Below, piece after piece: positions 1-53,196 of a stretch of 64,000 bases of DNA. The stretch is from assembly GCA_905178155.1 (NCBI GenBank), contig CAJINV010000015.1, positions 1,878,571 through 1,942,570 on the forward strand, written 5' to 3'. The notes under the pieces were generated by a model. That model was given only the letters and a program-made list of their open reading frames with translations. It ran no database searches and was not told the origin of the DNA. This stretch comes from Amoebophrya sp. A120 (Eukaryota; Protista; Dinoflagellata). Position 1 is the first letter of the stretch. Every line of letters begins with the position of its first letter. A program made the position numbers and the translations under genes.

Positions 1-34
1 GAAGATCTTGACGAACAAGAACACGCAAGCCACG

Positions 35-1249
35 ATGAAAGGTGGGAGTAAAAAGTCTCCGTCTTCCCGCCCATCGCTCGATATCATGAATCTCGTTGTT
101 CAGACAGAAGCGAACAAGAAGAAAGCGTCATCTTCCCAGTCAAAAGGTGCAGCTTCTGCTGCAGCTGTTGCCGGTTCTTCGTCTCTCTCCTCGACGACCG
201 GCGGTCCGTCGAGCGGTAGTTCCTCTAGTTCTTCCTCTTCCTCCTCTTCCAAACGCAGGGGCCATGGAGTTGTATCGTCCACTGCGGGAGCGGCCCCCGC
301 TGGAAATAAGCCCAGATCCATCTCGATTTCCTCCACCTCCAGCAGCGCCAGCATCTTCGCGAACCAGATGCCGGCGAAGATGAAAGTGCAACCACAACAA
401 CAGCAGCCGATGAAGCGCGTGATGCCGCACCGAAACTGCAAGGTGGATTACAGTGACGCTATGCCACATGCAGCGAAGGCGTATGAACGGATGCGGGAGA
501 AACTTGCGGCGCGGGGGGAAAAGCTACCGGCACTGAAGATGAACAAGATGAAAGCGAAGAACAGCAGTAGATCTTCGCGGTCAGGCTCCATTTCATCTTC
601 GAGCTCATCTGCGGCATCGATGTCCTCCTCGTCGAAGAAGATGAAACAGGTCATCAAGCCTTCCGGCTCTGCGAAGGGCGGTAAAAACGCGATGAAAAAA
701 GCAACTTCGACTCCTTCCAAATCTTCGTCCTCATCATCCCGGCGGAGCAAGAAAAGCGACGACAAGGTCGACGAGGTGCTCCACATGACTCTGGAAGTGG
801 GGCCGTTCGAGGTCATGGTCACGGGGGAGAAAAAAATCGAATACAGGGAGTACAAGGACCGGATGCATTCGCTCTTCGTGAGCAAGGAGAACCGCGCCGC
901 TGGTGATTTCAACACCTTCCGGAAATACAAAGTAGTCCGGTTCAAAAACGGCTACCAGTCCAACGCGGCGGTCATGGAGGTCGAGTTTAAGGGGATCCGG
1001 AAGAGCAAGGAGGCGGTGGATCAGCAGTTTTCGAATGGCTTACATGTGAAGTTGAAGAAAGGGGTGACCCACTACGAGATCGACCTCGGGAAGGTGCTGA
1101 AGGTGGAGAATTACGACAAGGAAAAAGCCCGGGCTATGACGCAGAAGAAGTATTTCGGCGTGCCGCTGCCACTGAAGTACAGAACTAGCAGCGCCATGAA
1201 GAAAGCTGCAATGAAGAAAGTGCAGCCGGGGAAGACGCAAAAGAAGTGA
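35..1249 (+). CDS. ASCH-domain protein with long Ser/Lys/Met-rich N-terminal tail (may start upstream of window)
   Basis: Intron-less ORF. C-terminal VLHMTLEVGPFEVMVTGEKKIEYRE...VRFKNGY...MEVEFKGI...YEIDLGKVL fits the ASCH GxKxxExR signature. Confidence 0.8.
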   Translation: MKGGSKKSPSSRPSLDIMNLVVQTEANKKKASSSQSKGAASAAAVAGSSSLSSTTGGPSSGSSSSSSSSSSSKRRGHGVVSSTAGAAPAGNKPRSISISSTSSSASIFANQMPAKMKVQPQQQQPMKRVMPHRNCKVDYSDAMPHAAKAYERMREKLAARGEKLPALKMNKMKAKNSSRSSRSGSISSSSSSAASMSSSSKKMKQVIKPSGSAKGGKNAMKKATSTPSKSSSSSSRRSKKSDDKVDEVLHMTLEVGPFEVMVTGEKKIEYREYKDRMHSLFVSKENRAAGDFNTFRKYKVVRFKNGYQSNAAVMEVEFKGIRKSKEAVDQQFSNGLHVKLKKGVTHYEIDLGKVLKVENYDKEKARAMTQKKYFGVPLPLKYRTSSAMKKAAMKKVQPGKTQKK

Positions 1250-2213
1250 CGACGAAGCTGATTCGCCTATCTCCTGCGTTATAAGTATGTGCTCACAGTC
1301 ACCCCTCAGCCCTTTGCCCTTTGCCCTTCCGCATGTAACTCGATAAAGTCCTGCAGCTCATAAGTTCTAGAAATCTTTTACATCACCCTTCCGGTTTTGA
1401 TGAATCTACACGCATTGTTGTGCTTCTTCTACTGCGCCTTGGTTGAACTACGAGTAAAAAGATGCTTCGCAACCGCTCATCTCATTTCAACAAGCAAGTA
1501 CTAAAATATGCACACACAAATCCAAATGCGCGTCGAAATGTACGATAAATTGCAAACGTCGCTGCAGCTGGAGCTGTTAGCGCGATACCCTTTGATGTCT
1601 TCTATAAAAGTCTCATCGGTTTTGTACCGTTCTTTCTTTAGTCGATGAGCAGACTGTCATGTGGTGTCAAGATGTTTGTGCAGGGATATCGACCTTATTT
1701 GTACACCAAGTATGCGTTGCTGTTGCGAATGTTGATCATTTCACTTTCGTGGAAGCAGAAAAGTAATCAACGAGCAAGGGGACGCTCAGTGCAAGTGCTG
1801 CTTGACGCAGCTTTGGCTTTTGATTGCCTATACTAGCCTCCACGTTCTTGTTTTGATGTCGCATTCGCCCCGTCCTTTCGTTTTGATGATTCGTTGCCAG
1901 CATGGAAAACTGAGCGAATGCGAAGGAATGACGAGTATGAGAGTGAGAGGGAAGATCAAAGACCGGCTGTAGCGGTTGTTCTGGTGAGTGCTTTGTATCG
2001 AGGAGCAGAGTGCTATACAATGAATGGGCTTCCTCGTGTGCTTCTATCTCGCTCGTGCCCATTTCGGTGCGCCGCGTTGAAAAGCAAAAATTGAAGCTGA
2101 ACACTCTTCGCAGGCAGCTGCTGCTTTACTTAGCTTCAGCTTTTTTAGCTTCTCCACGTGTACAATTTATCATCCTGCTGAGCAGCGAAAACTCCTACGA
2201 ACTTACCACGAGA

Positions 2214-5200
2214 ATGGCCGACCTCCCGCTCCGCATCGGCTATTCGCAGCCGCGAAACTTCGCGCAATGCCAGCCGGTGTTACCGAGCAACGACCCAAGC
2301 GCCAGTTTGTACGAGCAGTCGGTGGAGAATTTGGACGACTTCTATCCAGGAAAAAACACCCATCCCCATCCACTTTTTGCATGACAAATAGTGGATTTTA
2401 TGCATGTTTTGCATGACAAATTGGATGGGGGTGGGTGTTTTTTCCGGGATAACTTCCGCACCGGTTTAGGCTCCATGATGTTCGCGTCGACGACGATGAC
2501 GAAGTCGAATTTTCTATCAAAAGAAAAAAGTTCGTCACGATCACTCATGGGCATTTTTGCAATACAAAATTGTCTGTCATGCGTAAAAATGCATCACAGA
2601 CACAGCCACACTTCATAAGGGATTTCCCTAGTGTTTCTGCAATACAAGCAGAAGTTGTGATGCTAAAAAAATTTGTAATGCAAAGCCTGCAACTTAGTGA
2701 CTGTGACAAACTTTATTTTTCTCTCCATATTTTCTCGGCGCCGGTGCTGCTGGGAATAAAAAGTCGAACTACAAATCTTCCGGAGGAGGTGGACACAGCA
2801 CCTCATCCAGCACTACAGCGTCGAAATCTTTACTGCAGCGACCAGCGACAGTAGACCACCAGGTGACAAGTGCCAGCGCAGCAAACAATAAAATCGACCT
2901 GGAGAGCGAGATCTATTCGCAACTTTTCGCGGAAACCGCAAGTGCATTTAACTCATCAAGGTCGAATAAAATGAGCAACAAGACTCGAGGAGGCGCAACA
3001 AGTAGTGTGAGGACCGCGTCAGAAACAGCTGCGACTAAGCGACCATCCACTTCTGCCGCCGACGGGGCAACGGAAACCACAAAAGGGAAGAAAAAGGCCA
3101 CCATCAACGCCCCACTACCGGAGTCAACATCGTCCTTGACAAAGGATTTGAGTCCGAGTTTCAAAAACACCGAGCCGTTTCGCTGCGACGCGAGGATCAC
3201 CTCGAGATCTACCTTCGACGAGTACTATCCTGTGCAAAAGTATCGCGCTCGTAGTAAAATTGCAGTCCTGCATTACAAATTCTTTTCGTAAGGTAAATCT
3301 GCACGACAGATTTCACTTCTCATGCTGTCTGAGGAAATTTGTAATGCATTTATACGAATGCGATACTTTTGCAATGCATAAGTACATCAAACAATCCAAC
3401 GAGGCGAAAAGACTCGGGATCTCCCGGAAGGAGGTCGAAATCGAGCAGAAACTGCGGAAGAAACTGACTTACATCCAGAAACAGCAACGGTTTGATTCCT
3501 TAGTCAAGTCCGACGGGACCTTCAAAAGACAAGTTTGGGCGTCCATGATCAAGGAGGGGTTGATCGGGTACAATAAGACGAGTAAAAAGGCGCAGGCGGA
3601 AATGGGGGCCAGAGACGCTCTATGCATTGCAAAAGTATCGCACTCGTATGAATTGCAACTATGCATGACAAACTAGTATGTTAATACTTGAATCAGCATT
3701 ACAAATTCCAACTTGAACTTTCTTCTTGAGAAAATTTATCATGCAATTTAATCGTAGTGCGATACTTTTGCCATGCATACGCGCAGTCTTTCCTCCAATT
3801 ACTCGTCCGGCGATTCGGCACCATCATGCGTGCGTGGCGGAACGGGTTAGATTTGGACGGGAACGGGAGGATTAGTTACTACGAGTTCTGCAAAGCGGCG
3901 AGGGCGATCGGGTACGAGTCGAGTTTGCGGCAGCTGTGGAATGATTTGAATGACAACGATGATAAAGCGTTCATCACGCTAGACGAGCTAGACGTGGACA
4001 CCTTCAACCGCATCAACTACTTCAACGACATTCTGACGAGGAACTTCAGTTCTTTGAAAGAGGCCTGGCTCTTCTTCGACATTGACAAGCAGAACCAAAT
4101 TTACGAGAAACAGTTCCGAATTGCGCTGGTATCCACAGTATAATTCCCGTACACGTACAAGTGCTGTCTCTCTCTCTGCATGGCAAAACTCGGCGTCGAT
4201 CGTAGTTTAGCATGACAAGTCTCGTCGCACTCCCGATTGGGGAAATTTGTCATGCGTCTTGTACATCAGGTGCGGGAAATTTGTATTGCATAGCTGGTGG
4301 ACAAGTTGAATTTCGACACGGCGAAGTACGTATCAAATGCAAAAATGTCTGGGTCTGGCAGAATGCAGATTTTTGTCATGCTGTTTTTGCATGACACAAA
4401 ATGTCTGTCATGGAAGCCCTAGCATCACAGATTTCGAGAAGCCTCCGCGTTGCTTAATCCGCATGACAAACGTCGCCCCATTTCGGTGACAGGAAATGGG
4501 CGGCTTTTGCTGTCTATGCATGAGAGATTTGTCTGTGTTGTGTTATTCGCATCACAAGTTCGCACCCTTCCAGACCCAGACATATTTGCAATGCATAGTA
4601 CGATTTGAAGAAACTGTATGAAGATCTGGACTACGACGGCAACGGGTTTTTGACCTTGGATGATTGGCTGTTCCTGAAGAAATGGGTGACCAGCAACGAC
4701 TGCAAAATGCTGGAGGAGTTCAGGAAGGTATAGATTCTTGTGTGTTTTGCGCATAGCAAACCGCCTTTTCCATGCACGGTTTTGCATGACAAATTCAAAA
4801 AATCACACAACCCCAGGTCCTCCGCTCGAAATATTTCAAGCCGACCGACGCGTTCTACAAAGTTTTCGATGTCAACAGGAACGGCTCCATCGACCCATTG
4901 GAGTTCGTTGAGGGGTGCAATAAGTTGAAACTGGAGAAACACATCACCGAGATTGCCATCAATCCAAGACGCCTCTTCGAACTCCTAGACGCCGACGAGT
5001 CGGGGGAGATTTCCGTTTCGGAGTTTATCAAACTTTTCACGGCTACCGAATCCTCGGAGAACAAAGTAACCGCGGTGGACGAGCACAACCCTCTGCCCGC
5101 GATCCAGAAGGAGATCCAGTCGAAATTCGGGTGTATTGTGGATTTGGAGGAACTGCAACAACCATTGAAAAAATCCTACCAGTTGTACGACGCGGTATTC

Positions 5201-7567
5201 CGCCGGTTGGAGGAAACGGAAAGAACAGATTTGCACGAGCTCATCAACTACCAGTGGACGGGGCCGGACGAGAGTTTGATGAGCAGAAAATCGAGGTCGA
5301 ATAATTTGTTCGCAGCTGACGGAACAAATAAGCCGACAGGAGAAAACAAAGAGCATGTCAGGAAGATCTACTCGGCTGACTCGATCCAAGACATCGCGGA
5401 TTTGGATTTGTTACTGCAACAGGCGGAGCTGGCGCAGGCGTTTTTGAAACGGGCTTTGTTGAAGGAAGAAGTGCTGAAAGAGAATGGGATAATGACAACA
5501 GTTAGTACAACGAGTGGAGCTGCAAGTAGAAGCAGCACTAAAACCTCCTCCAGTCCGGCCGACGACCCGTCAAAAAATTTCGACGCGCAGGAGTTCAAGA
5601 AGAAAATCGACCAGATTTGGCCGTCAAAGACGACAACGAAGTCTTCTTCTCTGCTCAAGTATGCACTGCAAAAGTATCGTAAAAGGTACAAATACATATA
5701 CAAATTTCCTCAGCATGGGAGCTGCATTTTGTCATGCTGTTTTACCATAAAAACAAGAGTTGTCATGCATAGTTGCAATTAGTACGAGTGTGATACTTGT
5801 TTTGCAATGCATATCAAGCACCCTTTTCAAGAAGCGTTTGATCCGGCGATAAAGTCGAAGAAGCGGTGCATCGAGAAAGCGAATTACAAATACGAAGCGA
5901 CGTTATCCACAGTAAATTTCCCGTACTCGTACAAGTGTGGTTTCTGCATGACAAAACTTGCGTGGCTACCGTTTTAAGGTTTAGAGAACGACAGGGACGC
6001 CCAGCCCTTAGCTTCCCAACATGACAAAACTTGCACTCAATCCTAGTCCAGCATGACAAGTTGGGCTCTGCAAGGTAGCGAAATTTGTCATGCATTTTGC
6101 ACATGTACAGGAAATTTACATTGCATAGACGTATGGGAAAGCGAATAAGTTCAGGCGGATTCGGGACGTCGCGAGGATTTCCCTGCACTTCAACAAATGT
6201 AGGGAATTGTTGTCCGCGTTGAAGTATGAATTGCAAAAGTATCGTACTATTATAAATTGCATTACAAATCTCCTCAGCGTGAGAAATAAAATTTGTAATG
6301 CGGTTTTAGCTAAGGAAGGCGATTTGTCATGCATGTCTGCAATTAGAACGAGTGCGATGCTTTTGCAGTGCATATGAAGCAATTAGACGAGTTCTACAAC
6401 GTGATCTCCATCGACAACCGGATGAAGTATCCGACGGCGCTGGGGTGGAGAGACTTCGCCGCGTTAGTGATGATTGAATTGCCGAGTGAAAACCAGAAGA
6501 GCCCCGAGATGAAGAAACACGTCTGCGAGATACAGTACAACTAAAGGGATGTGTTGATGTTTGCTGATGTCGAACGCTTTTTGTGATGCAACTTTTTGAG
6601 AAGAAAATAAAAATCTTGCCGTATGTTCTTCAACTGGCTGCGCCAGAACCTGTGATGCAAAAAATCTTATGATCCAAAGAAACCGACTTATCAGGCTCCA
6701 ACTGACTCCCTTTAACGTCGCGCGGAAGCAGGCCCACCAATACTACCGCACTTTGCGCGAGAAAATCCCGTCATTAGTCCAGTCGAAACAGGCCGACGCT
6801 TTGCAGGAGGCGATTCTCGACAGTCTGCAAGCCGTGCGGAAATCGGAATTCTGTTCCCACGTGACCGTTATGAATTGCAAGAGCATCGTACTAGTAGTAA
6901 TTGCATTACAAATTACCTCAGCATGACAAATGGAATTTGTCACGCTGTTTTACCTTGGGATGTAGATTTGTAATGCACAATTGCAATTACTACGAGTACG
7001 ATACTTTTGCACTGGATGACCGTCGGCGTCGATATGGACCGTTCGAAAGTGTGGACCCAGCCCTGGTACCAAAACCCACTGGTGTTGGAGGGCAGGGTCG
7101 GATCACGACGGGAAAAGATGAAGAACCAGAAAGCGCTGCAAGACCCGGAAAAAAGCGCGAATAACTCTCCGTTACTCAAAAACCAGTTCCCGAAGAGCAG
7201 ACCGGAACTCCCGATCGTTTCCATGCGGACCGATTGGATGCGGGGAAACATGCACGGATCCTTTCCGCCGCCGGTACCAGATCTACGGGATAACCGGCCG
7301 TGGCTCCCGGCGGGCGGGTTGTTGAACGGGTTGTTTACCAATTTGACCGCAAATCACGAGATGGAGGACTATGTCACGGAGGGGGAACGGAACAAAATGG
7401 TGGAGAAATTGGGAAATTCACCGCCGGGGAATAAACTGTCTGGGGGGAAGAAGGGCGGAAATGAAGTCCCCGTTGGCGAGGCGAATTTTGATGAAAGGGT
7501 GAAAATGTTGGAAAAATCTCGGAAGAATCACGAGAAGAGAAAGCGGGAGTACTTGCAGAGTCGGTGA
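2214..7567 (+). CDS. Multi-exon protein: several EF-hands followed by RelA/SpoT-like nucleotidyltransferase domain
   Basis: Continuous frame after removing 9 TIR introners, 2 GT-AG introns (4728-4816, 6535-6694) and one non-canonical intron (~2547-2736). EF loops DLDGNGRISYYE, DYDGNGFLTLDD, DVNRNGSIDPLE, DADESGEISVSE. Synthetase-like motifs IKSKKRCIEK, RDVARISL, GWRD, HVCEIQL, HQYY. Confidence 0.85.
2343..2451. mobile_element. Introner family A
   Basis: 30-bp TIR TATCCAGGAAAAAACACCC…; DR ACTTC/ACTTC. Confidence 0.95.
3226..3380. mobile_element. Introner family B
   Basis: TAT-N5-GCAAAAGTATCG…CGATACTTTTGC-N5-ATA; DR AGTAC/AGTAC. Confidence 0.95.
3621..3779. mobile_element. Introner family B
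   Basis: Family B TIR; DR CGCTC/CGCGC. Confidence 0.9.
4130..4292. mobile_element. Introner family C
   Basis: TATCCACAGTA…GGGAAATTTGTATTGCATA; DR GCTGG/GCTGG. Confidence 0.95.
4331..4597. mobile_element. Introner family D
   Basis: TIR containing TGTCTGGGTCTGG…CCAGACCCAGACA; DR GTACG/GTACG. Confidence 0.95.
5660..5813. mobile_element. Introner family B
   Basis: Family B TIR; DR TCAAG/TCAAG. Confidence 0.95.
5904..6127. mobile_element. Introner family C (long variant)
   Basis: Family C ends; DR GACGT/GACGT. Confidence 0.95.
6225..6374. mobile_element. Introner family B
   Basis: Family B TIR; DR TGAAG/TGAAG. Confidence 0.95.
6869..7018. mobile_element. Introner family B
   Basis: Family B TIR (right end ATG instead of ATA); DR ACCGT/ACCGT. 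Confidence 0.9.
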
Positions 7568-8572
7568 AGATGGGGGTAAGAACATTGAGGAGGGGGATGG
7601 CGCCTATCATCTGGTGCTGTGGTGGAAGCACGTACTTCCTCTAACAGTATCCTCTCGGTCTCGTGCTACTTCTATCAAGAATCACTTCCCAGCAGCAGAA
7701 TGGCTGTAGACTTTCATGTACCTGCAGCTTGCTAAAAGACTTCCTTATTTTGATCTAGTACAGTACAACTTAGAGCGAAAGCGAATTGAAGTCATTGCCC
7801 GTGCTTAATATATCAAGATGTATGATGTTAATCAGTTTCAAGACGAAGACAGAAAACAAGATGTGGTCACGCTAGGACTCGTCAGGAAGAGCAGGAACAA
7901 ATTGGTTGGATTGCACTTGCTAATGTACTGCATTGCTTGTATAGAAGCTAGCGCCCGTATCAACAATTAAACACGAGCTATAATTCGGCAGGACAAGAGA
8001 CAGGATCAGATGGAGCGTTGGTCGTGGATGAAAGATGCTTTTGTAATGTCGTGTGATGGTCGTGCCCCCCGTGTAGCAACTACCTAGGTGAGGATGTGCG
8101 CGCTCAAGTTCAGGAAGATTCTTACGCGAGCAGCTGTCTTCTTCATCTTCAAAGATGAAAGCTACAAGTTCATCACATGGATCTGGATCATTTCCTCCGC
8201 GTTTTTGAAGCCCTTCATGTCGTTTGATGACCGCAGGAGTACTAAGAGTAGAGAGGCAGAGTATTAGACAGAGACCACACACAGTGTAGCTGATTCTGAT
8301 CTTCTGGTTCGACCCAGCCCACCACAGATCTGTGGCGAGGATCATTGTGACTTTAGATCATAGTCTTTTCAATTCTTTGGTCGTCTATCATTTTCCACTA
8401 GTATTGGTGTTTTCATCTTTTTGCTGGTCGGAGAAGGTAAAAGTAAATGTTGTTTGGTCGTGGATGAGGAGATTATGATTCAGTTTGTGTGGATGATGAT
8501 GTTAACCTACTACTTTTTCGTTTATCCCATTTCAACGCTCTGCATTAGCTGATGAAAACGAGAAGTTGATCG

Positions 8573-11500: not shown

Positions 11501-14500
11501 GCTACACTTGTGGCATTGCTTCTGTTGCTGCTCATGCTATATAAATGAGGGGGAGGGCAAGTTGTGCACTCTCATAGATTCGTTCGGTGCTACACAAACA
11601 GCAGAAATTTATCGTTGAGCAGGAAAGCGAAACGTTTGGAAAGGAGCAGCACGCCCTGCTCGGCTGCGCCCACCACTGCAGCGAATCCGAATTGCAATTC
11701 TTTGCAGACGATTTGCCCGGGTTTGTGGTCTTCGTACTGACGTTGGCGAAAGTGGTCGAGGTGGAGCGGGTTTTGCTGCAGTTACGAAGGGAGGAAAGGG
11801 AGCTACTGGAGGAAGAGGAAGATGAATACGAGGAAGATCATGATCCGGAGATGGACGCTGCCAGCGGCCTTTTGGAAATCGCCGAGAAGGTGAGGAAAAA
11901 AATCCGCAGTGACAATTGGAAAAAGGGGCTGAAGACAAAACTGCTGGAGCGTCTGGAAACGATCTCGGCGAAAGATCTTTTGGTCGTTGGTGGAGGTTCA
12001 TCATCGTCGGCGTCAGTCAGCAAGAGATGCAATATCACTGTCAACTTATCGAAAAGCCCCTACATGTTGATCTTTCTCTCTCGTCTCGTCAAATCCACCC
12101 AGGGCTGCAACGTCGATCTGTTCGGTATGGCGTTCTCAAACGTTACATTCTCAGCTGTTACATGATCTGTCATGCAAGAACAGCAATAGTGAAAGAGGCA
12201 AGATTGCAGCTTTCGCATTACAGACTTTCCACAGATTATCATGCTGCTTAGCCCTTCGAAAATTTGTCACGCTAAGCACCTTGATCAAGTGGAGGCTGAT
12301 GGCAATCTTGCATGACAAATCCGTGTAACAGTTGAGAATGTAACAGTTGAGAGCGCCATACTCGGTTTGTTTTCAGAAATCGACCGGATTTGTGGAGAGA
12401 AACTCGATAAGGAATCCGACCGGGACATGGCAGAGTACGAACATGGAAAGGACCTGCAAATCCTCCTGGCTGTTTTGGCGGAGAAAAAAGCGGAGGCGGA
12501 GCGGAAGAAGCAGGAAGATGAGCTTCTTCGGTCTCTCCGGTCTGACGTGCAGCAGGCTGTGCAGCAAGCCGTCGCAGTGGATGGTCCGCGAAATAAACTT
12601 AAACTACACAGTCGCACTATGGATGAACGGGAAACGGGCGCGAGTGTTGTCGTGATCGGTGGCCGCGACCTGGCCATGGATGACAACTTCGGGGGACTGG
12701 GGGTGCGAGACAATCAAAGAAATTGCGCAACGCCACACAGCCACATGATGAACAATGACAGCCCCTATAGTTGTGCAGGTGTTCAAGATCATATGGTGTC
12801 TGGAAACTACGCTCGTCGCGCGGGTGCGCAAGTCCAGCTGGGAGACCAAAGCTTCGTCGTATTTTCGCCTCGCCCAACGTCTTCGCGAGACGTTTCCGTC
12901 GGGTCTACTTCGCGCCGCGATAGCCACCGAAACAAGCACATTGGCGCGAGGAGAGAGATTTTTGGCGGGCAGGAGGAAAGTGCAGGGCCAGATGATCTCC
13001 CTTCTAGTTCTAAGCATAACCTCCGGGTGGAACAGCAGCTACAGCTACTATCCCCGACAGCATCCGACTCCGACAGCAGTTTTTTACCGGTGTCGAAGGA
13101 GAAGGGGCGTTTAGGACGAGACAGAAAGACGGCACAACTCCGAGGACACGACTATCCACAGTAAATTTCCCGTACACGTACAAATGCAGTCTCTGCATGA
13201 CATAACTCGCCTTCAATCCTAGTCCAGCATGACAAGTTGGACTCTGCAAGGTAGCGAAATTTGTCATGCATTTTGTGCGTGTACAGGAAATTTACATTGC
13301 ATAACGACAATAACAATTCTTCTGGGCGAAGGTTACGCCAACATCGCGCAGAGCTGTACTCCAATCCCAGCGACGCTTGCTCGGACGGGGATGGTGGAGG
13401 TTTTTTCAACGACGCAAGTAGTCTTGACGAGGAGAAAGATCGTTCGCGTTCCCGAGATAACAGGATAAGAGCCGGACAAGTCAACAATAAAGGGTCGCTT
13501 TCTGGCACGAGGCGGAGAAGCGCAAGCTCGTTAGATGGTCGGAGCTCTTCGTCCTGCGAGGACCACGACAACAGACCAGCTTCGCCAGAGAGTAAATCTC
13601 GCGGAGTTTTTAGGTTTCTGCATCAGCACCTGCTCGACGAAATAAAAGACGAACAGAAAAAGAGAAGCTGTAGAAACAACAAGAAACGGACCAACGGCGC
13701 GGCTGCGGACGAGCAGGATGTGGATGCCAATTTAGCGCCGAAAAATAGAGATACACCTCTTCCGAGCACGCCTCCTAAGGACAAGAGTACTGCTCAACAA
13801 GATGAAGAGCAGCCAAGTACATCATCGCGATCGCCGGATATTAATCACGACAAAGCAGATGTCGTGTCTAGCTCGCCCAATAATTTGCAGAAGGTTCTTG
13901 ATCGGGCCCTTCTTTCGGCATCATCTCGTCTGGACGAGAGACGCGACGACGAGCAGCCCATCTCGGAGTCGGAGCTGAGGTTTGAAAATAAAAAGTCCAA
14001 GAAAAAAGAGGGTGAACAGTCGGTAGATCATACTCGGCACGAGGACACTGAGCGACGTATAATCCCCGCAGTGGACTACAAAAACCGAGTGGCGGGGTCG
14101 TGTGGAGACGTGTCAGAAGACAAAGAAGGCCAGAGCCAGAGCGGGTCCCGTAATATCGTGCATGCAGCTCTAGATAAGGATGACGCGGCTCGCATCACGG
14201 CAACAACTGCAGTTCCGTCACCGACACTGGACGAAAATAAGTTCCACGAGGCAGCGGACGATTTTATTTCAGCGAATGGGAATGCACTTCCACATGCGGC
14301 CTCCTGTGCTCGGCAGACCGAATATCAAGTCTCTGCAGAAGCACAAGGCGACGATGCGAAATCTTCGAATGGTGCATCGCCCCAAACTGCAAGAAGGGAG
14401 TGTAGCCGACCCGAGTCTCCTTTCGTGTGTAGTAAAACTCGTCGAAAAAAAGGAATTCCTTTTTGCCGATCGCCGCCCGGGCTGGGAAGTAGTAGTGCAC

Positions 14501-16467
14501 AAGACGAGACGCTGCGATCGCTCGAGGTCAAGGAGGAGGATTGTCGTGAAGATGTGCGTGACACGCTCGTAAGTGTGACTGCCTCGTCTACCGATCGAAG
14601 AAAAACATCACATCATCGACGAGAAGTTGCACAACCTTCAATGTCGGACGGTGCGAGTAGAAGTAGTTCTACTTCATCTTCCTCTTCTTCTCCCCGGCGG
14701 CCGAAAGGAGATCAAGACGCGGTTGCAGGTGAGTCACCTATTACAACTTCGAGGTCGTCAACATCGTCACCCATTGTACCGGTGCGCCGATCTTCTTCTT
14801 CAGGCATAATTCGCGCTAAGACTACTGAAGCCAGAAAAAAGATCCGAAAGACAGAGAAAAAGCCAGCAGCCTCTTCCCCCGGCTCCCTCAGCAGTGAACA
14901 GCCATCCCTGCGGTACCGTGGCCCCTCTGCGCTAGTGTCGCGTCGCGGTCCGCATGCTCGTCCTTCTTGGCGCCCAGGTTCCACTCCGCCTGACATTAGA
15001 GTAGAACGGCGCAGACGGCTGTTGGCGGACGCGCAGGCTGTGCTTGACACGACTCCGCCCTCGGATCCGCGCCACGAAGCGTCGCTAATCGTGACTACGG
15101 AAAAATCTTCAGAAGAGTCGAGCGGGACGACGAGCAGGAGCTCTACATCTACTACTTCTTTTTCCAGCGATGAGGATAACCATGAGCAGGCCGCTAGAAG
15201 GCGGAGCAAAAGTCGTGGCGCAGACCATGACGCAGCTTCTACATCATCTTCTAGCACGACCAGCAGCAGCGGCTCGCGCGGTTGCTCGGTTGTAAGAAGC
15301 ACGAGCAAGATTGCAAAGAAGCCGTCTGCCACGTCACGACGTGACCAACAACCACATCACGATGTTGTGCAAGAACGCCGAGGAGGACCAAGAAACGACT
15401 TCAACAACCACAGAAATCTTCAAGAAGCGTCATTGTCTGCTGGTGGTGCTGTCGCTGCCAACAGTTCCGCGGCGGGGGCCGCGGAGATGGGCTTGAGAAA
15501 TTTCGAGGACCGCTTCGATCGCGGCACTAGGCATGACGTCGGCAGGTGCCAACCCATTCAGGTTCAGCCTGAGGTGTGGCGGACGCGGGACCGGCTGAAG
15601 ATGCGAACGGGCCAACCCGAGCAGCACCGGGGCCAGCAGCAACTACCCGCGCCAGCAGAGGAAGGCATCTACGGGAGCATCGGCAATCGCGAGCGCCCAG
15701 TGTATTGGGATCCCTACAGACCAGGGGGGACGCAAGAAACAGCAGAGCAGAACGACAGACAGCTTCGGAAATTTTTAGACAAGAAAGGCCGACAGAGAGC
15801 AAATTGTCCCCGTCCTACGATTCAGCCGGTGCCCGTTCGGGTCATGTCGGGTCTCGGGGTTCAGCAGGCGTATGATTATTTCCGTGGGAGCCGCATGGAC
15901 ATGCCGGCAGCGAGGATAGCAACGAAGTACGTCGCGCCCTCGGGGCCTCGCGCTGTTGCTCGATCTCGCCCAGCTGCGCCAGATGTCAGAGCGGGCGGCC
16001 CTTCCCCTACCAGCAGGAGAGGCGTTCGCGTTGGACCCCCATCCAGGATGAAGAGTAAGCAAGGGAAGACGCGCACTTTTTCGCCGGGGCGCAACCGGAA
16101 CCACGCAACTGCGGACGAGCAACGCAACGGGAGCCGAAAGCAGGACCGTCACACTCAGCGGGTCGCCGCGCAGAGGAACCACGCGGCTGTCGCACGCCGG
16201 CAGGACGGAAGGAGTAGCACAAATCAGAGAAATTATGCGAGGCACAGCCCATCTCGTTCACCTCCGTTAGAGGTGGCCCATCAGCAGCACCGGAGCCAGG
16301 ACCCGCGAGAGCAGCGTATTCTACACACCATCACGCCGCGACCGGGCCGACCCGGTAGGCTTAATTTCGAGAAGGCTATGACACTGCCAACAATGTCAAA
16401 AGCCTGCATTGTTCTCAGTTTTTTTTTCCGGGCTCGCTGCAGCTTTTGCTATAGTTTTAGAATTTGA
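8573..16467 (+). CDS. Very large, mostly low-complexity Ser/Arg-rich hypothetical protein (3' end uncertain)
   Basis: ORFs 8573, 9306, 10254, 11587, 12367 and 13261 join in frame via GT-AG introns (~8869-8986, 10149-10361) and four introners (11128, 11354, 12126, 13153). Confidence 0.65.
11128..11285. mobile_element. Introner family B
   Basis: Family B TIR; degenerate DR ATCAA/GTCCA; frame restored. Confidence 0.85.
11354..11576. mobile_element. Introner family E
   Basis: TIR with GTGCACAACT…CCCCTCATTT; DR GGTTC/GATTC. Confidence 0.9.
12126..12360. mobile_element. Introner family F
   Basis: TATGGCGTTCTCA…TGAGAGCGCCATA; DR TTCGG/CTCGG. Confidence 0.9.
13153..13303. mobile_element. Introner family C
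   Basis: Family C ends; DR ACGAC/ACGAC. Confidence 0.95.
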
Positions 16468-43809: not shown

Positions 43810-46800
43810 TCAAAAAAAATAGTCATCGTATTCCGGTGGCTCATAGTCGTAGCCTCCTCCGAACCCTCCAAAGCCTCCTCCTCCGCCGTAATAATTGTAA
43901 AAGTTCTTCTTCGCCGCCTTTGCTTTCGGTTGCGGTGGGCCCGCGAGCGCATTATCCCACGGCGTCAGCGTCAAGTCCGTCCATTGTTGTTTCACCTTCA
44001 TCCCCTCCGGCCCCTCGCAGTGCCGCCACCCCGTCATGCCGACCTTGAAGCCGCGGCAGGTCAGTTTTCCGGCTCTCCAGTCCAAATCTACCTGTTCGGT
44101 TCTTCGGCATTTCGGGCAGCTTTTGAACGTTCCGCCGAGGGTTTTGTACATCGCGAGCGATTCGACGAGCAGCTCTTTTTTCACGTTGGAAAGCCCCTTG
44201 ACGTTGTTCTGGCGCACCATCTGGCTCAACTCCGAGATTTTTTTCTTCTTTAAATCCAGTTGGTGTTGCTGGAAAGTTTTGTATTGGGCGGAGGTGAAGA
44301 TGCCGCGATCTTCGGCGGTGAGGGTGCTGTGATGTTCATATGTGGATGTGATCTTGATGATCAATAACAATAACTGTATCGCGTTCTTCATTCAATTTGA
44401 TTTTTGTGTATTGCGCTGCATGAGCACGCGATCCTGCTCGTCTGAAAAATCCAAACTACCGAGACGAGCAGGGCAGTACACAGCCAACAATAAAATTTTC
44501 ACGAAACTGATTTAAGCCTAAAATACCTCCCCGCGGCGGCGCTCCCTGATGAAGAAGGCCCAGCTGCTCCACCAGAGGTCGTCGAGTTGTTGTTTTTCGC
44601 ACTTCCTATCCGTATTTCTGGGTTCAAAATCTCTCCCCACGCCTTCTTGAATTCCCCTGCGAGTGCCGTGTCGAGCCTATTCGGGTCCGCGAAAACGTGT
44701 TCTTTTTTCGCCTCATATTCCGCGATGAGTTTTTCCGCAGTCGGAAGGAATTTCCGCTTATCCTCCCACCAGTTCGCTTTGCGGAAATTCGCGAGGCACC
44801 GGGCGCATCCTGTGCAAAAGCATCGCACTCGTAGTAATCGCAATCATGCATTACAAGTCTTTTTCTTAAGGTAAATCCGCATTACAGATTCCATTTCTAA
44901 TGCTGAGCGAATTTGTATTGCAGTTACTACTAGTACTAGTACGATACTTTTGCAGTTCATAGGGCGTGGAGATGGATGCTGGATCGGAACTTGGCTTGCA
45001 ACAGCGTCTTGTGAATTGCAAAAGTGTAGTCTGGGTCTGGAAGATTGCAACTTGTCATGGTAAATCTGAAGCATGCAAAAATCTGTGTTGCATGAGTGCC
45101 AGAAGCTGCCCACTTTTGACCAAATTGGAGCAGAGTTTCTCATGCAGAATAGGCATGGCAGAGGCAGACGCAGAGACCTCGCAGAGTCTGTCATGCTAAG
45201 TCCCGCATTCCAGACCTCATGGGTCATGGAAACTCTGCATCATGACAAGTCTACACTCTTCCAGACCCAGACATTTTTGCACTTGATACGTCTTGTCGCG
45301 GCCGGCGTCGACGTAGTAGTAGTCATCGGCATCGAAAGCGCCGTAGAGGTCGAGCTCTTTTTCTTCACGGTCAAGGCCTATCGTGAAGAAACATTCCCCC
45401 TCGTCCCCATGTTGAAAGTGTATCCATATCCTTCTGGAGGTGGCCACAGAGCGCGTCTGTCTTGCAAGAAGGCAAAGCCAGAGAACCCGGCGTCGCATTA
45501 TATATACGTGCGATTTGTAAAAACGCTGCAAGGCCTACAGGGCAGCACCAGTCGCCTGCCCTGCTACGTGCCTACACGACCAAAAGACCCCTGCGGCGCC
45601 TATCCAGGCTTATGCTTATCTACCTGCAGTTCTACTTCCCTACTGCATCATCTTCAACTACGCAGATCCGATTTATTGTGCACGCAAATCTCGCATCACA
45701 GATTTCCAATTTATTTTGCATATGGGGAGGGGGAATTTTCAAACTCATATGGCTGTCCGTTTCTTCTTCGGACGCATCGTCTATCCTGAGGAAAAACGTC
45801 CCCACACCAGAGCCAAGATGGAGAATCTGCTAGACAAATCGGCCAGCTTTGGCTGTTTCGCATGACAAGTTTGTCCTCGTAGTGTGATCCTGAGTAGCTA
45901 GCTCAGCAGCATCACAGATCTAGCATATCATGCTATTTCTACCATCACAAATCCCAAAACACGACTAGAAAAAGCTTCTCATGGGGCTTTGCATGAGAAA
46001 CTTTTTTGGCATGCAAATTTGCATGACAACTCTGGGGTGGGGACGTTTTTACTCAGGATATCATCACACATGTAATTATCCTCGCCATGATACCCGTAAT
46101 AGTCGTCATTTGGTTCCTATGAGGTGCAAAAGCATCGTACTAGTATAAACCAGCCATGCTCCGGCTACCGCCGGAGCGCAAGGCTGTTTGGCCGGGTTTG
46201 AACTGCTTGCGGACCGGACCACAGCGACATACATACTCATGCCCCCACAGCACCGTCTGCGCGCTTCTCGCGCCTAAGGGCGCTCTGCGCAGGGAGGAGC
46301 TACCGCGAGCACTGGGGCAGAACAGGACGCACCTAGGTGCCACACCAATCCGGTACGCATGCCTTTCGTTAATCAAGACGAACCACGAACCCCGCCCCAT
46401 TCCCCGGCTTCACTTTTTCAATGGCTTCAGTGTGGGAGGGCGGCGCGAGAGGGTAGCGCGAGAGGGTGGCGCGAGAGGGTGCGCGAGAGGGTAGCGCGAG
46501 AGGGTGGCGCGAGAGGGTGGCGCGAGAGGGTGACGCGAGAGGGTGGCGCGAGAGGGTGGCGCGAGAGGGTGCGCGAGAGGGTGGCGGGGACAAACGCCGT
46601 CCGCGAAGAGCCTGCAATGCTAAATATGAGCACTACCATGCGGATTCGCGCCTGCCACTTTGTGTTTTTACCCTCTCGCAGACCTCTCGCAGACCCTCTT
46701 TTTTACCTCTTTTGGGGGTCCCCGCTAATAGTCCGGCTATACTCGCGGGTAGAGGTCGACAGAGGTGGCCCAGAGGTGGCCGAGAGGGTGCGCGAGAGGT

Positions 46801-48361
46801 TGGCCCTTATTCGCGCCACCTCTCTCGACCTCTGTCGACCTCTCGCGCCCCCTCTTTTTGACCTCTCTGAACCCTCTGAGGCACTTAGGCGCCGCCTTAA
46901 GGTGGGGCCTTCAGCGGGCTATACTCGCGCACCCTCTCGCCGACCCTCTCGAAAGGGGTCCCGCGCCACCTCTCCACCTCCGTCGACCTCTTTTTTACCT
47001 CTTTTGACCTCTTTTTGACCTCTCGGCCACCTCTTGTTTACCCTCTGTCTACCTCTTTTTTCGCATGAATATAATATATAAGTAATCGCAATACAAATTT
47101 CCTCAGCATGAGAAATAAAATTTGTAATGCAGATTTGCCTTAAGACAAAGATTTGTAATGCAAGACTTGCATTCATACGAATACGATACTTTTGCACAGG
47201 ATAGTTCTGGAATACCCAGAGCCTCGCAGCACGGGCAGCCTTGGTAGTGGAAATCGCGCTTGTACCTGTTGTGTTGTAGTGCGAGTTCTGCAATACAAAT
47301 TTCATACCGTCCACATACAGAATGCAGCTGAAATTCTACCAAGAACATTGTCATGCAGAAGCCGCATCTACTTCGAAATTGTAATTGACAACAGTCTACC
47401 CCTACCGTCGTTCATATTCCGCGGGATTGTTCTGCTTCAGCTCTTTTTTCTTCGCCAATCTCTCAAGCGCTTCTTTTCGATTTTTTTCGATTTTTCCCTG
47501 CTTCTTCGCTTCGTCGATTTGTTTTGCCTCGAAGTATATCAAATGCAAAAGTGTCTGGGTCTGCAAGGATGCAAGGCGTGTCATTCACATTTTGCATCAT
47601 GACTCCTGAAGTCTGTAGAAACGCATGCTCTAGCATCACAGACTTTGCGAGGGCTTCCTGATGTCTAGACCGCATGAGAAACGCCCTCTCGCCGTGGCAA
47701 AAACTGGCCCTCTTATTTTGCTGCTCGTGCAATGCAGATTTTAGAAGTATGCAACTGCGGCATCAAAAGTTGCATCCTTCCACCAGACCCAGACATATTT
47801 GCAATACATAAAGTAGCTTCGTTCGTCAAAATAGATGAGGCAAACGGTTTTCTCCCCGAGCTTCGTGCAACAAGTCGCGCATTTCTGGTTTTTCCATTTC
47901 GGAACGGAGAGCTCCAGGGAAAATCGCTCGTTCTTCGTTGGATTGGTGTTCACGATTTTGGGGCGGGGCAATGCTGCCGGTGCGGCTCCTGCAACAGAAA
48001 AATTTCCAGCTAGGTTATTTTTGTTGTTGGAAGTAGAGGAAGATGAAGACGAGCTACTAGACGAGGCTGATGCAGCAGGACCACCACCTCCTTCTGCGCC
48101 GGCAGCTGATTTGCTCGTCTGCTTACCGCGGCCTCGTTGCTGCGCCATTTCTATTTTCCCGGAAGATGAGCTACAAGATGGAGCGACTTTCGAATTTTTG
48201 GCGGCCTTCTGCGATTTCGCTTTCGCGGCCGGCTTGCTGGGTTTCTTCTTGCCATCGTCAGCAGACTTCTTGGTAGGTAGTTTCTTCATCGCAGCTGGCT
48301 TGTTGCTTGTTGCAGTGCTGCTCCTGGCACCAGCCGTGGCTGCTGCTTTCATTTTAGGCAT
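43810..48361 (-). CDS. PARP1-like DNA-binding protein: zf-PARP-type finger plus PADR1 (Zn3)-like domain, no catalytic domain
   Basis: Nine exons join in frame (6 introners; GT-AG introns 44327-44526 and 47266-47405). FSLELS…KCATC…HLHARC finger; C-terminal LLVESLAMYKTLGGTFKSCPKC…LTCRG…GWRHC resembles PADR1. Confidence 0.75.
44806..44961. mobile_element. Introner family B
   Basis: Family B TIR (left end CAT); DR GGGCG/GGGCG. Confidence 0.9.
45010..45288. mobile_element. Introner family D
   Basis: Family D TIR (left end TGT); DR CGTCT/CGTCT. Confidence 0.9.
45379..45749. mobile_element. Introner, family E-like, degenerate
   Basis: TAT…ATTCCCCCTC / GAGGGGGAAT…CATA; DR AGGCC/TGGCT; frame restored. 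Confidence 0.7.
45782..46060. mobile_element. Introner family H
   Basis: Family H TIR; DR TCGTC/TCATC. Confidence 0.9.
46118..47203. mobile_element. Introner family B carrying a nested ~935-bp insertion
   Basis: Family B left TIR at 46118, body resumes ~47081, right TIR ends 47203; DR GTTCC/GTTCT. Confidence 0.85.
46146..47080. mobile_element. GC-rich repetitive insertion nested in an introner
   Basis: Flanked by AGTA; ~10 tandem GCGCGAGAGGGT(G) units at ~46443-46583 followed by inverted CCCTCTCGC copies. Confidence 0.7.
47537..47810. mobile_element. Introner family D
   Basis: Family D TIR; DR AAGTA/AAGTA. Confidence 0.95.
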
Positions 48362-49478
48362 GGTGAAGATACGGTGTCTGGGCCGTGACGCCAACGCTGA
48401 ATTTTCTATGCGAGGATCTGAAGAAGAGATGAGGGGCGGGGAGACAAGCTAGCACTACTTATTAAGTAGTGCCCGCCAGTTAATAGAGGCTGAGCGAGGC
48501 CAACAATCACCAGGAGTTATTTTGCTTTTGGTACCGTCGTGTTACAGTAAAAAAATGCTCAACAGTCTTGGTATTCTGTTCTAGTTCTACAGGTCGCTAG
48601 TATAATCGATCTAAATAAATTTACTCATCTCTCCAGCGGCGTTTATTGGTCGCCACACTAACACTTTCTGTAAACAAGAAAAGGATAAGGATGAAGAGAG
48701 AGTTTCAATGAAAAAAGCACGGAGCTCTTTTGGCTCAAGAGAAAAGTTCAAAATTATGTAAGATGTTGAGCGGCGATCTTGCAGCGCCTGGAAATGATGA
48801 CCGCACTCTTGTTTCGTCGCGATCTCTGTCTCTCGGGAAATTTAAGATCTCAATTTCTGGTCATCTTCCTGCAATAAGGAGCCTTCGTCCCAACTCGATA
48901 TCGCTCCAAAAAAAAACCTTGTGGCTCGCTCACGCTCAAAGGTAAGAAGAACACCTAGCAGGCCTTCATGGAGATCTCAATGCTAGCTGCTAGGAATCAG
49001 CCCTGCCAGATGAAGATTTAATTGCTACCTGTCATCGTGTTCTTAAAAGAGTCAGCAAGTGGTCTGCAAAAATAGTGATTTTTTTTGCACAAAATGCACG
49101 GAGCTCTCCGAGCATCACAGCTCCGACAACAGGCGTGTTGTATCTTTTAACGATAAATACACCTCATCCTCAACTTCTAACACTACCAGAAAAACTAAAT
49201 CATACAATAACACGGACGAGATACTTACATCGTAATACAAAAACTGCTCCTGCTCTTGTTCCGAAACGAAACGAAGGCAGAAAGGCCTAGATCTATACTG
49301 TATTTCTATTTCTCCTTGGTTCTCACTCTCAGTCTTCACCATTTTTAAAACATTACTCAACACTTCGGAAAAATGTAACTTTGTGTGTTAGTGTTAGAAC
49401 ATTGCACAGCCCGTAGCTGGTGTCCTCTCAAAATCTTATCCCTGCTCAAATGTGTGACAAGTGACAGGATTCCAATGT

Positions 49479-52400: not shown

Positions 52401-53196
52401 CCGTTTTTTGGAAACAAGCCCAACCAACCATCCATCTGTCTGGATGGATGGACTTGGTCCCCGTTTTTTGGAAGCGCGAGCCATCCGCGTTTTTTGGAAA
52501 GAGTCCATCCAAACAGCGTTGTTTGGACATCCATCCTCGCGTTTCCAAAAAACGCGAGCCATCCACCCAAGAGTCGCCCGCAAGGTACACAACGCTAGCC
52601 GGCCGCGGGTTGCTTTGACTTTGATGGCCTGCTGCAGTCGTGTTTGCACTCAAAATGCCGCGGAGGTTCGCGACTATCTGCCTGACAGTTTGCCCATTCG
52701 TGCGCTCCCGGTACCCGTAATACCTGGTAGCGTTGATCTGTGTCAGGGTGGTTGCGGAGGCTCTTTCAGTGAAAGCGCCTCCGCCGCTGGTGCCAACGCT
52801 GCTGCCTCCCACCCCGTCGTTGCCTCCTCCGGCAGTTGGAGGCGGAGTGGGGGCCACGTTGTTCCCCTCTGTACCACTGGAAGTAGACCGCGCGTGGTTT
52901 TTATTAACCGCGACAATGAAGACTCCGGCCGTCGTAAGAAACGCGATGAGAACTATGGCCCAGAGTGGGAGACAGGGAGAACTGCGAGGAGACGGGTTCA
53001 AATGTTCGGATTGTTGCAGGAGGGTGTCATCAACTTCAGATCCTCCTGCATGACAAGATTTGGAATTCTTCGAGCCATCGCGGTTCTTCGAGCCATCGTG
53101 GTTTTGATGCTTTTGCTTTTCTCCACCCCGCCCCAACAAGAAAGGATCTTCGTCTGCATAGTACCGATGCTCTGCTAGAATCGTTGTTTGGGTCAT
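49479..53196 (-). CDS. SGNH/GDSL-type hydrolase, type II membrane-anchored, paralog 1 (1.6-kb insertion at the GDS motif; possibly a pseudogene)
   Basis: N-terminal TM, VYLAGDSW, VSGND, DNLHP; homologous to the two following copies. Confidence 0.7.
49628..49804. mobile_element. Introner family B (shared by the three SGNH paralogs)
   Basis: DR GATGT/GATGC; same site as 54795 and 59462. Confidence 0.85.
49950..50346. mobile_element. Introner family K (shared by the three SGNH paralogs)
   Basis: TAT-N6-GAAAAG…CTTTTCA-N5-ATA; DR TCCCG/TCCCA. Confidence 0.85.

Follow-up and report, generated by a model that had tools for sequence, protein, structure and literature searches.

In a 64,000-nt window (the whole stretch of DNA analysed) from the marine parasite Amoebophrya sp. 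A120 (contig CAJINV010000015.1, positions 1,878,571 to 1,942,570), a spliced gene at 2214–7567 on the forward strand encodes a protein of 1102 residues in which EF-hands precede an alarmone synthetase domain. To judge by its sequence, this domain belongs, as a eukaryotic variant, to the RelV/Apk1 branch of the RelA/SpoT homologue (RSH) synthetases, and not to the CRSH type found in plants; its chemistry is predicted. The function that we propose, with confidence that stops somewhat short of even, is that of a cytosolic (p)ppGpp/(p)ppApp synthetase under calcium control, which would use ATP to pyrophosphorylate a purine nucleotide, most likely GDP or GTP, at its 3'-OH.

The gene comprises 13 exons and 12 introns and yields a reading frame of 3309 nt; an extent of 3781–6868, given in the initial annotation, was too short. 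Before splicing, the region consists of short open frames with repeats between them. The introns are ten elements with terminal inverted repeats (TIRs) and 5-nt direct repeats (introners) and two canonical GT-AG introns. When each element is cut out with one copy of its direct repeat, and the two GT-AG introns are removed as well, the product is identical, letter for letter, to the database protein P0001 ("unnamed protein product [Amoebophrya sp. A120]"). There is no methionine among the 89 open codons upstream of 2214. The peptides quoted in the initial annotation are all present, and splicing brings them into one frame: PAIKSKKRCIEK is found at 5843–5878, IRDVAR at 6159–6176, IDNR at 6410–6421, GWRD at 6443–6454, CEIQ at 6524–6534/6695, and AHQYY at 6732–6746. 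The gene is real and spliced, as had been observed. The introners, which are already known, only explain why the synthetase domain was hard to see.

Transcript evidence comes from four RNA-like runs, which contain 59% of the sampled words of 2100–7700, the share expected from the exons alone (3309 of 5601 bases). Intron-free contigs with the gene in one record were present in all four (X1–X4). In the contigs X1 (3908 nt) and X4 (3874 nt), the EF-hand and synthetase exons stand in a single record, and the listed pieces match without mismatch; in X1, all eight of these pieces lie at exactly the transcript position given by the exon model. X2 and X3 show all four synthetase joints (skips of 159, 229, 155, and 160 nt), and a further run, X5, retains introns. 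That X1–X4 are RNA is no more than a guess; the runs represent two samples from a single study, and their contigs give neither expression level nor strand; the 77 raw reads of X8 all fall on one introner at 90–95% identity and are uninformative on expression. The two halves of the protein, for which separate transcripts had been envisaged as a refutation, are thus found on one transcript-like contig.

The fold of the domain was examined by profile and by predicted structure. A profile of 96 rows of relatives, compared with solved structures, matched Tas1 (E 1.4e-6) and B. subtilis RelP (E 2.7e-6), the other three of the five matches having E values of at least 1. The AlphaFold model of residues 658–912, built from this 96-row alignment, has a pLDDT of 89 and a pTM of 0.85 (a model from two sequences, with a pLDDT of 40, was not used). 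Foldseek placed RelP and RelQ at the top (E 6e-7 to 1e-5), and among the matches listed, 23 of 23 were RSH-family enzymes. With VIA-align, a Z of at least 8 was reached by 10 of 48,161 chains, all ten of which are RSH synthetases, the best non-RSH chain having a Z of 6.2; the values were 13.4 for RelP (rmsd 4.8, 164 residues), 10.6 for Tas1 (rmsd 4.5, 157 residues), and 10.1 for CapRel (rmsd 3.7, 163 residues). K765, K773, D793, R796, E862, Q864, and H878 align in order with the Mg2+/ATP residues of RelP and Tas1. The RelA/SpoT-like fold that had been suspected is thus recovered, and the assignment of the domain to the RSH superfamily, on the strength of a predicted model and a profile, is firm. 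A comparison of ESM Atlas features gave 30 matches, 27 of them unnamed clusters and three a set in which 17% of members carry PF04607, which is a lead only.

The branch to which the domain belongs is indicated by its motifs. In RelV of Vibrio cholerae, K107, D129, R132, and E188 are reportedly essential (Dasgupta et al. 2014). RelV has the same motifs as the present domain, namely, K-x3-R-x3-K, D-x2-R, NR, G-aromatic-RD, and E-x-Q (supplement of PMC12691689). Counted from the alignment in PMC12691689, RelV K107, R111, K115, D129, R132, and N161 correspond to K765, R769, K773, D793, R796, and N825, and RelV R162, Y171, D173, E188, and Q190 to R826, W835, D837, E862, and Q864. The domains of A120 and of Amoebophrya A25 (P0003), when used alone, matched a RelV-like Photobacterium protein with 94% probability (E 1e-7, 29% identity, 109 columns). 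The best hits of the family profile were two Photobacterium proteins with leader-like N-termini (E 2e-34), followed by a phage protein (E 2e-22), while the family member P0060, of bacterial type, led to loci of Photobacterium, Vibrio, Deinococcus, Azospirillum, and phages (seven plasmid and two phage records, of which five were retrieved). In a tree of 57 rows and 128 columns, the RelV-like rows stand beside the family, without RelP/RelQ or long RSH rows, though 22 of the 54 inner branches are weak. In a 152-row alignment (percentages counted among the 134–147 rows with a residue at the position), conservation is 98% for K765, 99% for D793, R796, and N825, 100% for G834, 90% for D837, and 98% for E862; the polar motif residues are 82–100% conserved, and all are invariant in seven of seven orthologues. 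A Tas1-like, and hence adenine-specific, domain was also considered and was dropped, RelV being closer in motifs; Tas1 is itself a homologue from the RelV subfamily (PMC7591505, PMC7229694).

Three side observations concern these relatives. In Photobacterium sp. DA100 (locus L001, 1250–3082), two RelV-like genes lie in tandem, both encoding leader-like N-termini. In Bordetella phage PHB04 (locus L005, 1071–3336), a gene for a synthetase-domain protein follows the portal gene and is itself followed by a small gene and by one for a (p)ppGpp hydrolase, an order that is the layout of the Apk2-IapK-Aph1 loci. Finally, an acidic strand precedes the NR motif and is reminiscent of the EXDD/RXKD charge reversal (PMC2666561), a match made by eye to which no weight is given.

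Several results weigh against the synthetase reading. No match to PF04607, the profile against which the initial annotation had wanted the protein checked, was obtained for P0001, P0003, or their domains at E values up to 10. The protein, its isolated domain, and a two-sequence alignment matched no RSH protein in Pfam, NCBIfam, or the PDB sequences. The core is just 19–26% identical to six bacterial locus proteins. RelV K160 is replaced by D824, and RelV N175, the equivalent of Apk1 N370, by A839; Apk1 N370 is listed as an ATP-binding residue (PMC12691689), and its position holds Ala, Thr, or Ser in the orthologues and Asn in 25% of the family. The distant orthologues retain mainly the first and last EF loops, those in the middle having degenerated in P0007 and P0008. 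Finally, the choice of acceptor cannot be read from the motifs.

The loss of the K160 and N175 equivalents and the failure of Pfam might mean that the domain is a catalytically dead nucleotide-binding module and that the EF-hand protein has a structural role, perhaps in the flagellum or the cytoskeleton, and the conserved Trp/Pro-rich tail does suggest a fixed binding partner. However, both metal-binding acids and all the basic phosphate-binding residues are invariant in the seven orthologues, and they are 82–99% conserved in a family whose overall identity is low, so we consider a dead domain unlikely. Two further departures from the canon concern the first-motif arginine (SaRelP Arg78), which is absent here (Ala763; five of six orthologues have Gly and one has His), and the SxH motif, which has a role in guanosine recognition (PMC12226406) and is replaced by D837-x-A839. 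RelV likewise has Gly at the Arg78 position (PMC12691689, supplement), and because RelV also lacks both features, their loss does not imply a dead enzyme. At the position of the G-loop tyrosine, the aromatic character is kept by Trp835 (in the family, Trp in 61% and Tyr in 27%).

As regards the acceptor, VpEAS makes (p)ppGpp exclusively, consistent with RelV, and AaEAS makes (p)ppGpp only, whereas Apk1 and Apk2 make (p)ppApp and SaEAS makes both (PMC12691689); motif swapping did not convert the acceptor of Apk2 (PMC12226406). If the enzyme is active, we would give a guanine acceptor about an even chance, an adenine acceptor or both a distinctly smaller one, and an RNA end or some other acceptor the smallest; guanine is slightly favoured because the closest motif match, RelV/VpEAS, makes (p)ppGpp. 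The structural match to CapRel raises the possibility of a pyrophosphotransferase for a non-nucleotide acceptor, be it the 3' end of tRNA, as for CapRel and FaRel2, or a protein, and the invariant N825, R826, D837, and R885, which differ from RelP/RelQ, could define another acceptor site. N825, R826, and D837 are, however, also present in RelV, which uses GTP or GDP, and such an acceptor seems to us a little less likely even than the dead domain.

In the layout of the protein (Table 1), Pfam finds EF-hands only, with no HD hydrolase match and no secretion domain; the EF-hands and a helical linker take the place of a hydrolase domain before the synthetase. A hydrophobic leader was not found near the N-terminus, where the top 11-residue hydropathy is 0.34 (this being a matter of hydropathy only, with no dedicated signal-peptide or targeting predictor). 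The initial annotation had counted at least four EF-hand loops, and four canonical-looking and two degenerate loops were found. The profile of the linker that follows them matches 17 family proteins beyond its own rows and near copies (E 1e-19 to 0.05), and the linker is a candidate relay from the sensor to the active site. The synthetase domain contains a low-complexity insert at 5462–5620, and its key residues are K765 (5852), R769, K773, D793 (6165), R796, N825, W835, D837, E862 (6527), Q864, and H878. The profile of the C-terminal segment matches 10 of the 167 collected proteins, which, among these, are EF-hand orthologues only. P0154 and P0155 are multi-EF-hand proteins with the KRQVW segment but no synthetase match, and are a possible source of the N-terminal module.

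The full design, which runs from the KRQVW segment through the EF-hands, the linker, and the synthetase to the Trp/Pro tail, is common to P0001, P0003, P0153, P0007, P0008, and P0010 (32–62% overall identity; P0005 is partial). Since the EF-hand form is conserved in these six full-length proteins, it is not an Amoebophrya invention. In the three closest orthologues, the EF region is 73–82% identical, the catalytic core 65%, and the N-terminus 26–37%; these three keep the acidic ligands at four loops, and most orthologues retain the loops at residues 327 and 530. Calcium gating, suggested by analogy from the EF-hand fusion, has as its alternative an active synthetase in which the EF-hands serve docking or stability, with no calcium switch. 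This alternative would account for the two degenerate loops out of six here, and for more in P0007 and P0008, and for the fact that the same synthetase domain works with many other partner domains; it accords less well with the retention of acidic ligands in all three close orthologues and with an EF region as conserved as the core. We therefore think it unlikely, and would place it between the dead domain and the non-nucleotide acceptor in probability.

The wider family was collected with a profile built from the domains of A120 and A25, which retrieved 416 of 1.84 billion representatives at E ≤ 0.001 and 122 at 1e-10, where word-based homologue searches reached 3, 2, and 8 proteins. A metagenome scan gave 251 pattern matches but no relatives, and a search of phages with P0003 found nothing. 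Among 149 relatives scanned with Pfam (75 at E 0.001, 74 at 1e-5), EF-hands were found in 12, NACHT-type modules in 9, ion-channel domains in 5, Roc or Roc-COR in 4, and G-alpha, cNMP-binding, Hsp70, ubiquitin-conjugating, Myb, or TPR domains in single proteins. PF04607 was matched in four of the 149, one of them above the curated cut-off, and an HD hydrolase in none. An organism was found for 4 of 30 proteins: Chrysophaeum taylorii (Roc-COR), Polykrikos kofoidii (two, EF-hand), and Didymoeca costata (G-alpha). As the named members come from a choanoflagellate, a pelagophyte, and a dinoflagellate, the family spans alveolates, stramenopiles, and choanoflagellates. In P0026 (from Chrysophaeum taylorii) and P0041, the synthetase domain lies between the Roc GTPase and COR, and in the partial P0037, it lies before COR; in P0017, from the choanoflagellate Didymoeca costata, it lies in front of the G-alpha domain.

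Fusions with modules of the kind found in immune sensors (NACHT-type, Roc/COR, WD40, LRR, and TPR) bring to mind a (p)ppApp synthetase like Apk1/Tas1, that is, a calcium-triggered switch for shutdown or death which drains ATP, as in sensor-coupled immune effectors. Tas1 is, moreover, the best solved-structure match of the family profile, and among the bacterial relatives are a DUF4157 protein (P0090) and the phage gene that has a portal gene on one side and, on the other, a small gene with one for a (p)ppGpp hydrolase. In its NR and G-W-R-D motifs, however, the domain fits RelV and not Tas1, which has neither, and the slow change of a gene conserved over its whole length (core identity of 65% for the two Amoebophrya strains) fits housekeeping signalling better than an arms race. 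An effector of this kind is in our estimate unlikely too, though by a shade the least so of the alternatives considered here.

The initial annotation had proposed an independently assembled enzyme. An origin apart from plant CRSH stands, given the missing hydrolase domain, the EF-hands on the other side, and the RelV-type motifs; assembly in this lineage does not, the module being widespread in protists, with the fusion in distant eukaryotes. The number of fusions depends on the tree: FastTree separates the Polykrikos-type EF-hand proteins from the Amoebophrya type (25 of 152 rows dropped as partial), whereas IQ-TREE, with 57 chosen rows, joins them on a long branch (a single clade is not rejected, p-AU 0.62), and a clade of all 15 EF-labelled rows is rejected (p-AU 3e-5), though the set omitted two rows nested inside it. 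The idea that the gene is a relic of a plastid CRSH/RSH4 system retained after plastid loss draws on the coupling of EF-hands to ppGpp synthesis in CRSH and on two red-lineage algal RSH4 proteins with N-terminal EF-hands (PMC6881373). With no hydrolase domain, no hydrophobic leader, motifs of the RelV and not the long-RSH type, and family members in a choanoflagellate as well, its probability is next to nil.

If the protein is the calcium-regulated synthetase proposed above, D793 and E862 would hold Mg2+, while K765, R769, K773, R796, Q864, and H878 would bind ATP, as do their counterparts in RelP and Apk1, and W835 would replace the base-stacking G-loop tyrosine (roles assigned by correspondence with SaRelP, PMC5794853, and Apk1, PMC12691689). 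Binding of Ca2+ to the four intact loops might shift the conserved linker or the C-terminal segment off the active site, a switch that would keep an otherwise nucleotide-draining enzyme quiet at rest. Enzymes of the RelV/Apk1 branch are fast, and toxic when unrestrained in the cytoplasm (PMC12691689), so that a built-in switch is to be expected, and plant CRSH is a precedent for Ca2+ control of this fold (PMC6881373). The Amoebophrya host is reported to have lost its plastid (PMC7789003), in agreement with what the initial annotation had supposed. Since there is neither a leader peptide nor, presumably, a plastid, the site would be cytosolic and the product would act in the cytoplasm.

To our knowledge, alarmone signalling has so far been shown in bacteria and chloroplasts, and in eukaryotes, it is documented for plastids. 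With slightly less confidence than for the single enzyme, we suggest that protists may run cytosolic, plastid-independent alarmone signalling, in which a RelV/Apk1-type synthetase derived from bacterial toxins would be a plug-in output behind calcium, G-protein, cyclic-nucleotide, channel, and NACHT/Roc sensors; the present gene would be the member gated by calcium, with Ca2+ spikes converted to (p)ppGpp or (p)ppApp. It offers a concrete enzyme for asking whether (p)ppGpp or (p)ppApp is produced as a second messenger in the cytoplasm of eukaryotes, and the EF-hand form is the easiest member of the family to test, its presumed trigger being one that can be added in the tube. Nearly the whole family escapes the standard domain library. 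Our literature searches found no paper on a eukaryotic RelV/Apk1-type family, a result sensitive to wording (PMC3482391 was missed by phrase though it writes RelA/SpoT), and none linking RelA/SpoT, ppGpp, and dinoflagellates. Unplaced "divRel" synthetases have been described in fungi, Dictyostelium, and diatoms (PMC3153485). The Apk1 survey of PMC12691689 is restricted to bacteria, and the string "eukaryot" is absent from the main text of PMC7229694, whose datasets (24,072 genomes) may list eukaryotic members.

Elsewhere in the window, an upstream frame at 2–1249 (+) has a long Ser/Lys-rich region followed by a domain for which Pfam gives just ZFYVE21_C (E 0.005) and which we take to resemble an ASCH RNA-binding domain. 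Pfam at E 0.001 matched none of the 23 long frames tested (8973–34832 (+) and 43813–62075), one of which, at 13255–16467, is 1070 residues long. The frames of the window lie mostly on the + strand until about 39 kb and often on the – strand beyond 43 kb.

All ten introners of the gene start with TAT; nine end with ATA and one with ATG, their TIRs match at 11–19 of 20 positions, and their 5-nt direct repeats are exact in nine of the ten. By strict criteria, the 64 kb contain 26 such elements, with one left end entering the count twice, as against 0–1 per simulated sequence (n = 10); 8 of the 26 strict TAT..ATA elements fall in this 5.4-kb gene (2343–6374), a local excess. Amoebophrya introners are described as non-canonical introns with terminal inverted repeats and direct repeats of 3–5 nt (PMC7789003), and the ten here, which are absent from the RNA-like contigs, are ordinary members that do not differ from them. 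In introner 4 (3616–3784, with its unequal repeats), the X1 and X4 contigs retain the left-copy base 3619 and resume at 3784, so that the 5' cut lies at the inverted repeat or one base before it and the 3' cut where the right repeat ends. According to PMC7789003, it is unknown where in the repeats the border lies, and mismatched direct repeats could serve to map introner cut positions genome-wide.

Table 1. Features of the EF-hand synthetase gene (positions in the window; aa, amino acid residues).
Feature	Position	Strand	Basis or remark
Exons 1–7	2214–2342, 2457–2514, 2735–3225, 3386–3620, 3785–4129, 4298–4330, 4603–4727	+	Cuts can slide within direct repeats
Exons 8–13	4817–5659, 5819–5903, 6133–6224, 6380–6534, 6695–6868, 7024–7567	+	Cuts can slide within direct repeats
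N-terminal low-complexity region, aa 1–254	2214–3469	+	13–37% identity to five orthologues
Conserved pre-EF segment, aa 255–320, KRQVW motif, no known family	3470–3831	+	40–85% identity, five orthologues
EF-hand region, aa 321–550	3832–5050	+	Pfam EF-hand_7, E = 7.5e-17; EF-hand_1, four stretches
Canonical-looking EF loops, aa 327, 440, 490, 530	3850–3885, 4629–4664, 4868–4903, 4988–5023	+	Loop comparison
Degenerate EF loops, aa 361, 403	near 3952 and 4078	+	Loop comparison
Conserved linker, aa 551–625	5051–5275	+	Partly common to family members of other architectures
Predicted RelV/Apk1-type synthetase domain, aa 655–912, five exons	5363–6839	+	AlphaFold, Foldseek, VIA, conservation, RelV comparison
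Conserved C-terminal segment, aa 915–1020, Trp/Pro motifs	6846–7318	+	32–71% identity over aa 891–1020
Introner 1	2343–2451	.	TIR 19/20, direct repeat ACTTC
Introner 2	2515–2729	.	TIR 11/20, direct repeat TTTTC
Introner 3	3226–3380	.	TIR 17/20, direct repeat AGTAC
Introner 4	3621–3779	.	TIR 19/20, direct repeat with one mismatch
Introner 5	4130–4292	.	TIR 13/20, direct repeat GCTGG
Introner 6	4331–4597	.	TIR 16/20, direct repeat GTACG
GT-AG intron, 89 nt	4728–4816	+	Splice model; contig spacing agrees
Introner 7	5660–5813	.	Direct repeat TCAAG; joint 5654/5814 in X2 and X3
Introner 8, within synthetase	5904–6127	.	Direct repeat GACGT; joint 5898/6128
Introner 9, within synthetase	6225–6374	.	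Direct repeat TGAAG; joint 6219/6375
GT-AG intron, 160 nt, splits Q864 codon	6535–6694	+	Joint 6534/6695
Introner 10	6869–7018	.	Direct repeat ACCGT; right end ATG, not ATA

Among known systems, plant CRSH and RSH4 were the comparison first made. The likeness holds in outline, with EF-hands and an alarmone synthetase on one chain, but the useful comparison is with the branch of RelV, Apk1, and the exported synthetases. CRSH, a long RSH of plastids, has a hydrolase domain that is degraded and EF-hands that are mostly C-terminal (PMC6881373, PMC3153485), whereas here the EF loops are all N-terminal, there is neither hydrolase domain nor leader, and the synthetase is of another branch. RelP/SAS2 and RelQ/SAS1 (PDB 6fgk, 6ewz, 5dec) are the best structural matches (Z 12.5–13.4, rmsd 4.2–4.8, 160–164 residues), and the Mg2+ ligands Asp107 and Glu174 of SaRelP, together with Lys80, Lys88, and His190 (PMC5794853), have counterparts here; the present domain differs from them in lacking Arg78, in having its second arginine at D+3 and not at D+5, in the G-loop change from Tyr to Trp, and in D-x-A in place of SxH. 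Apk1/Tas1 (PDB 6ox6) and SaEAS (PDB 8vx3) match with Z values of 10.6 and 9.9, with Apk1 D327, R330, and E382 corresponding to D793, R796, and E862. Tas1 is without the NR and RD motifs but has Asn370, and Apk2 belongs to the MuF toxins; compared with Apk1/Tas1, Apk2, and SaEAS, the present protein has no secretion domain and no adjoining immunity gene, and its product is only predicted. With RelV/VpEAS (Vibrionaceae, signal-peptide-bearing, (p)ppGpp only), the identity is about 25%, and Tyr171, Lys160, and Asn175 of RelV are here Trp, Asp, and Ala; the present protein is eukaryotic, with introns, 1102 residues, EF-hands, a conserved tail, and no signal peptide. The order and spacing of the motifs are nevertheless the same, with an N-terminal helix ending in AQ-x2-L, and the two have in common K-S-x2-R-x3-K without the canonical first arginine, D-x2-R, NR-hydrophobic-K-x-P, G-aromatic-RD, and E-x-Q-L.

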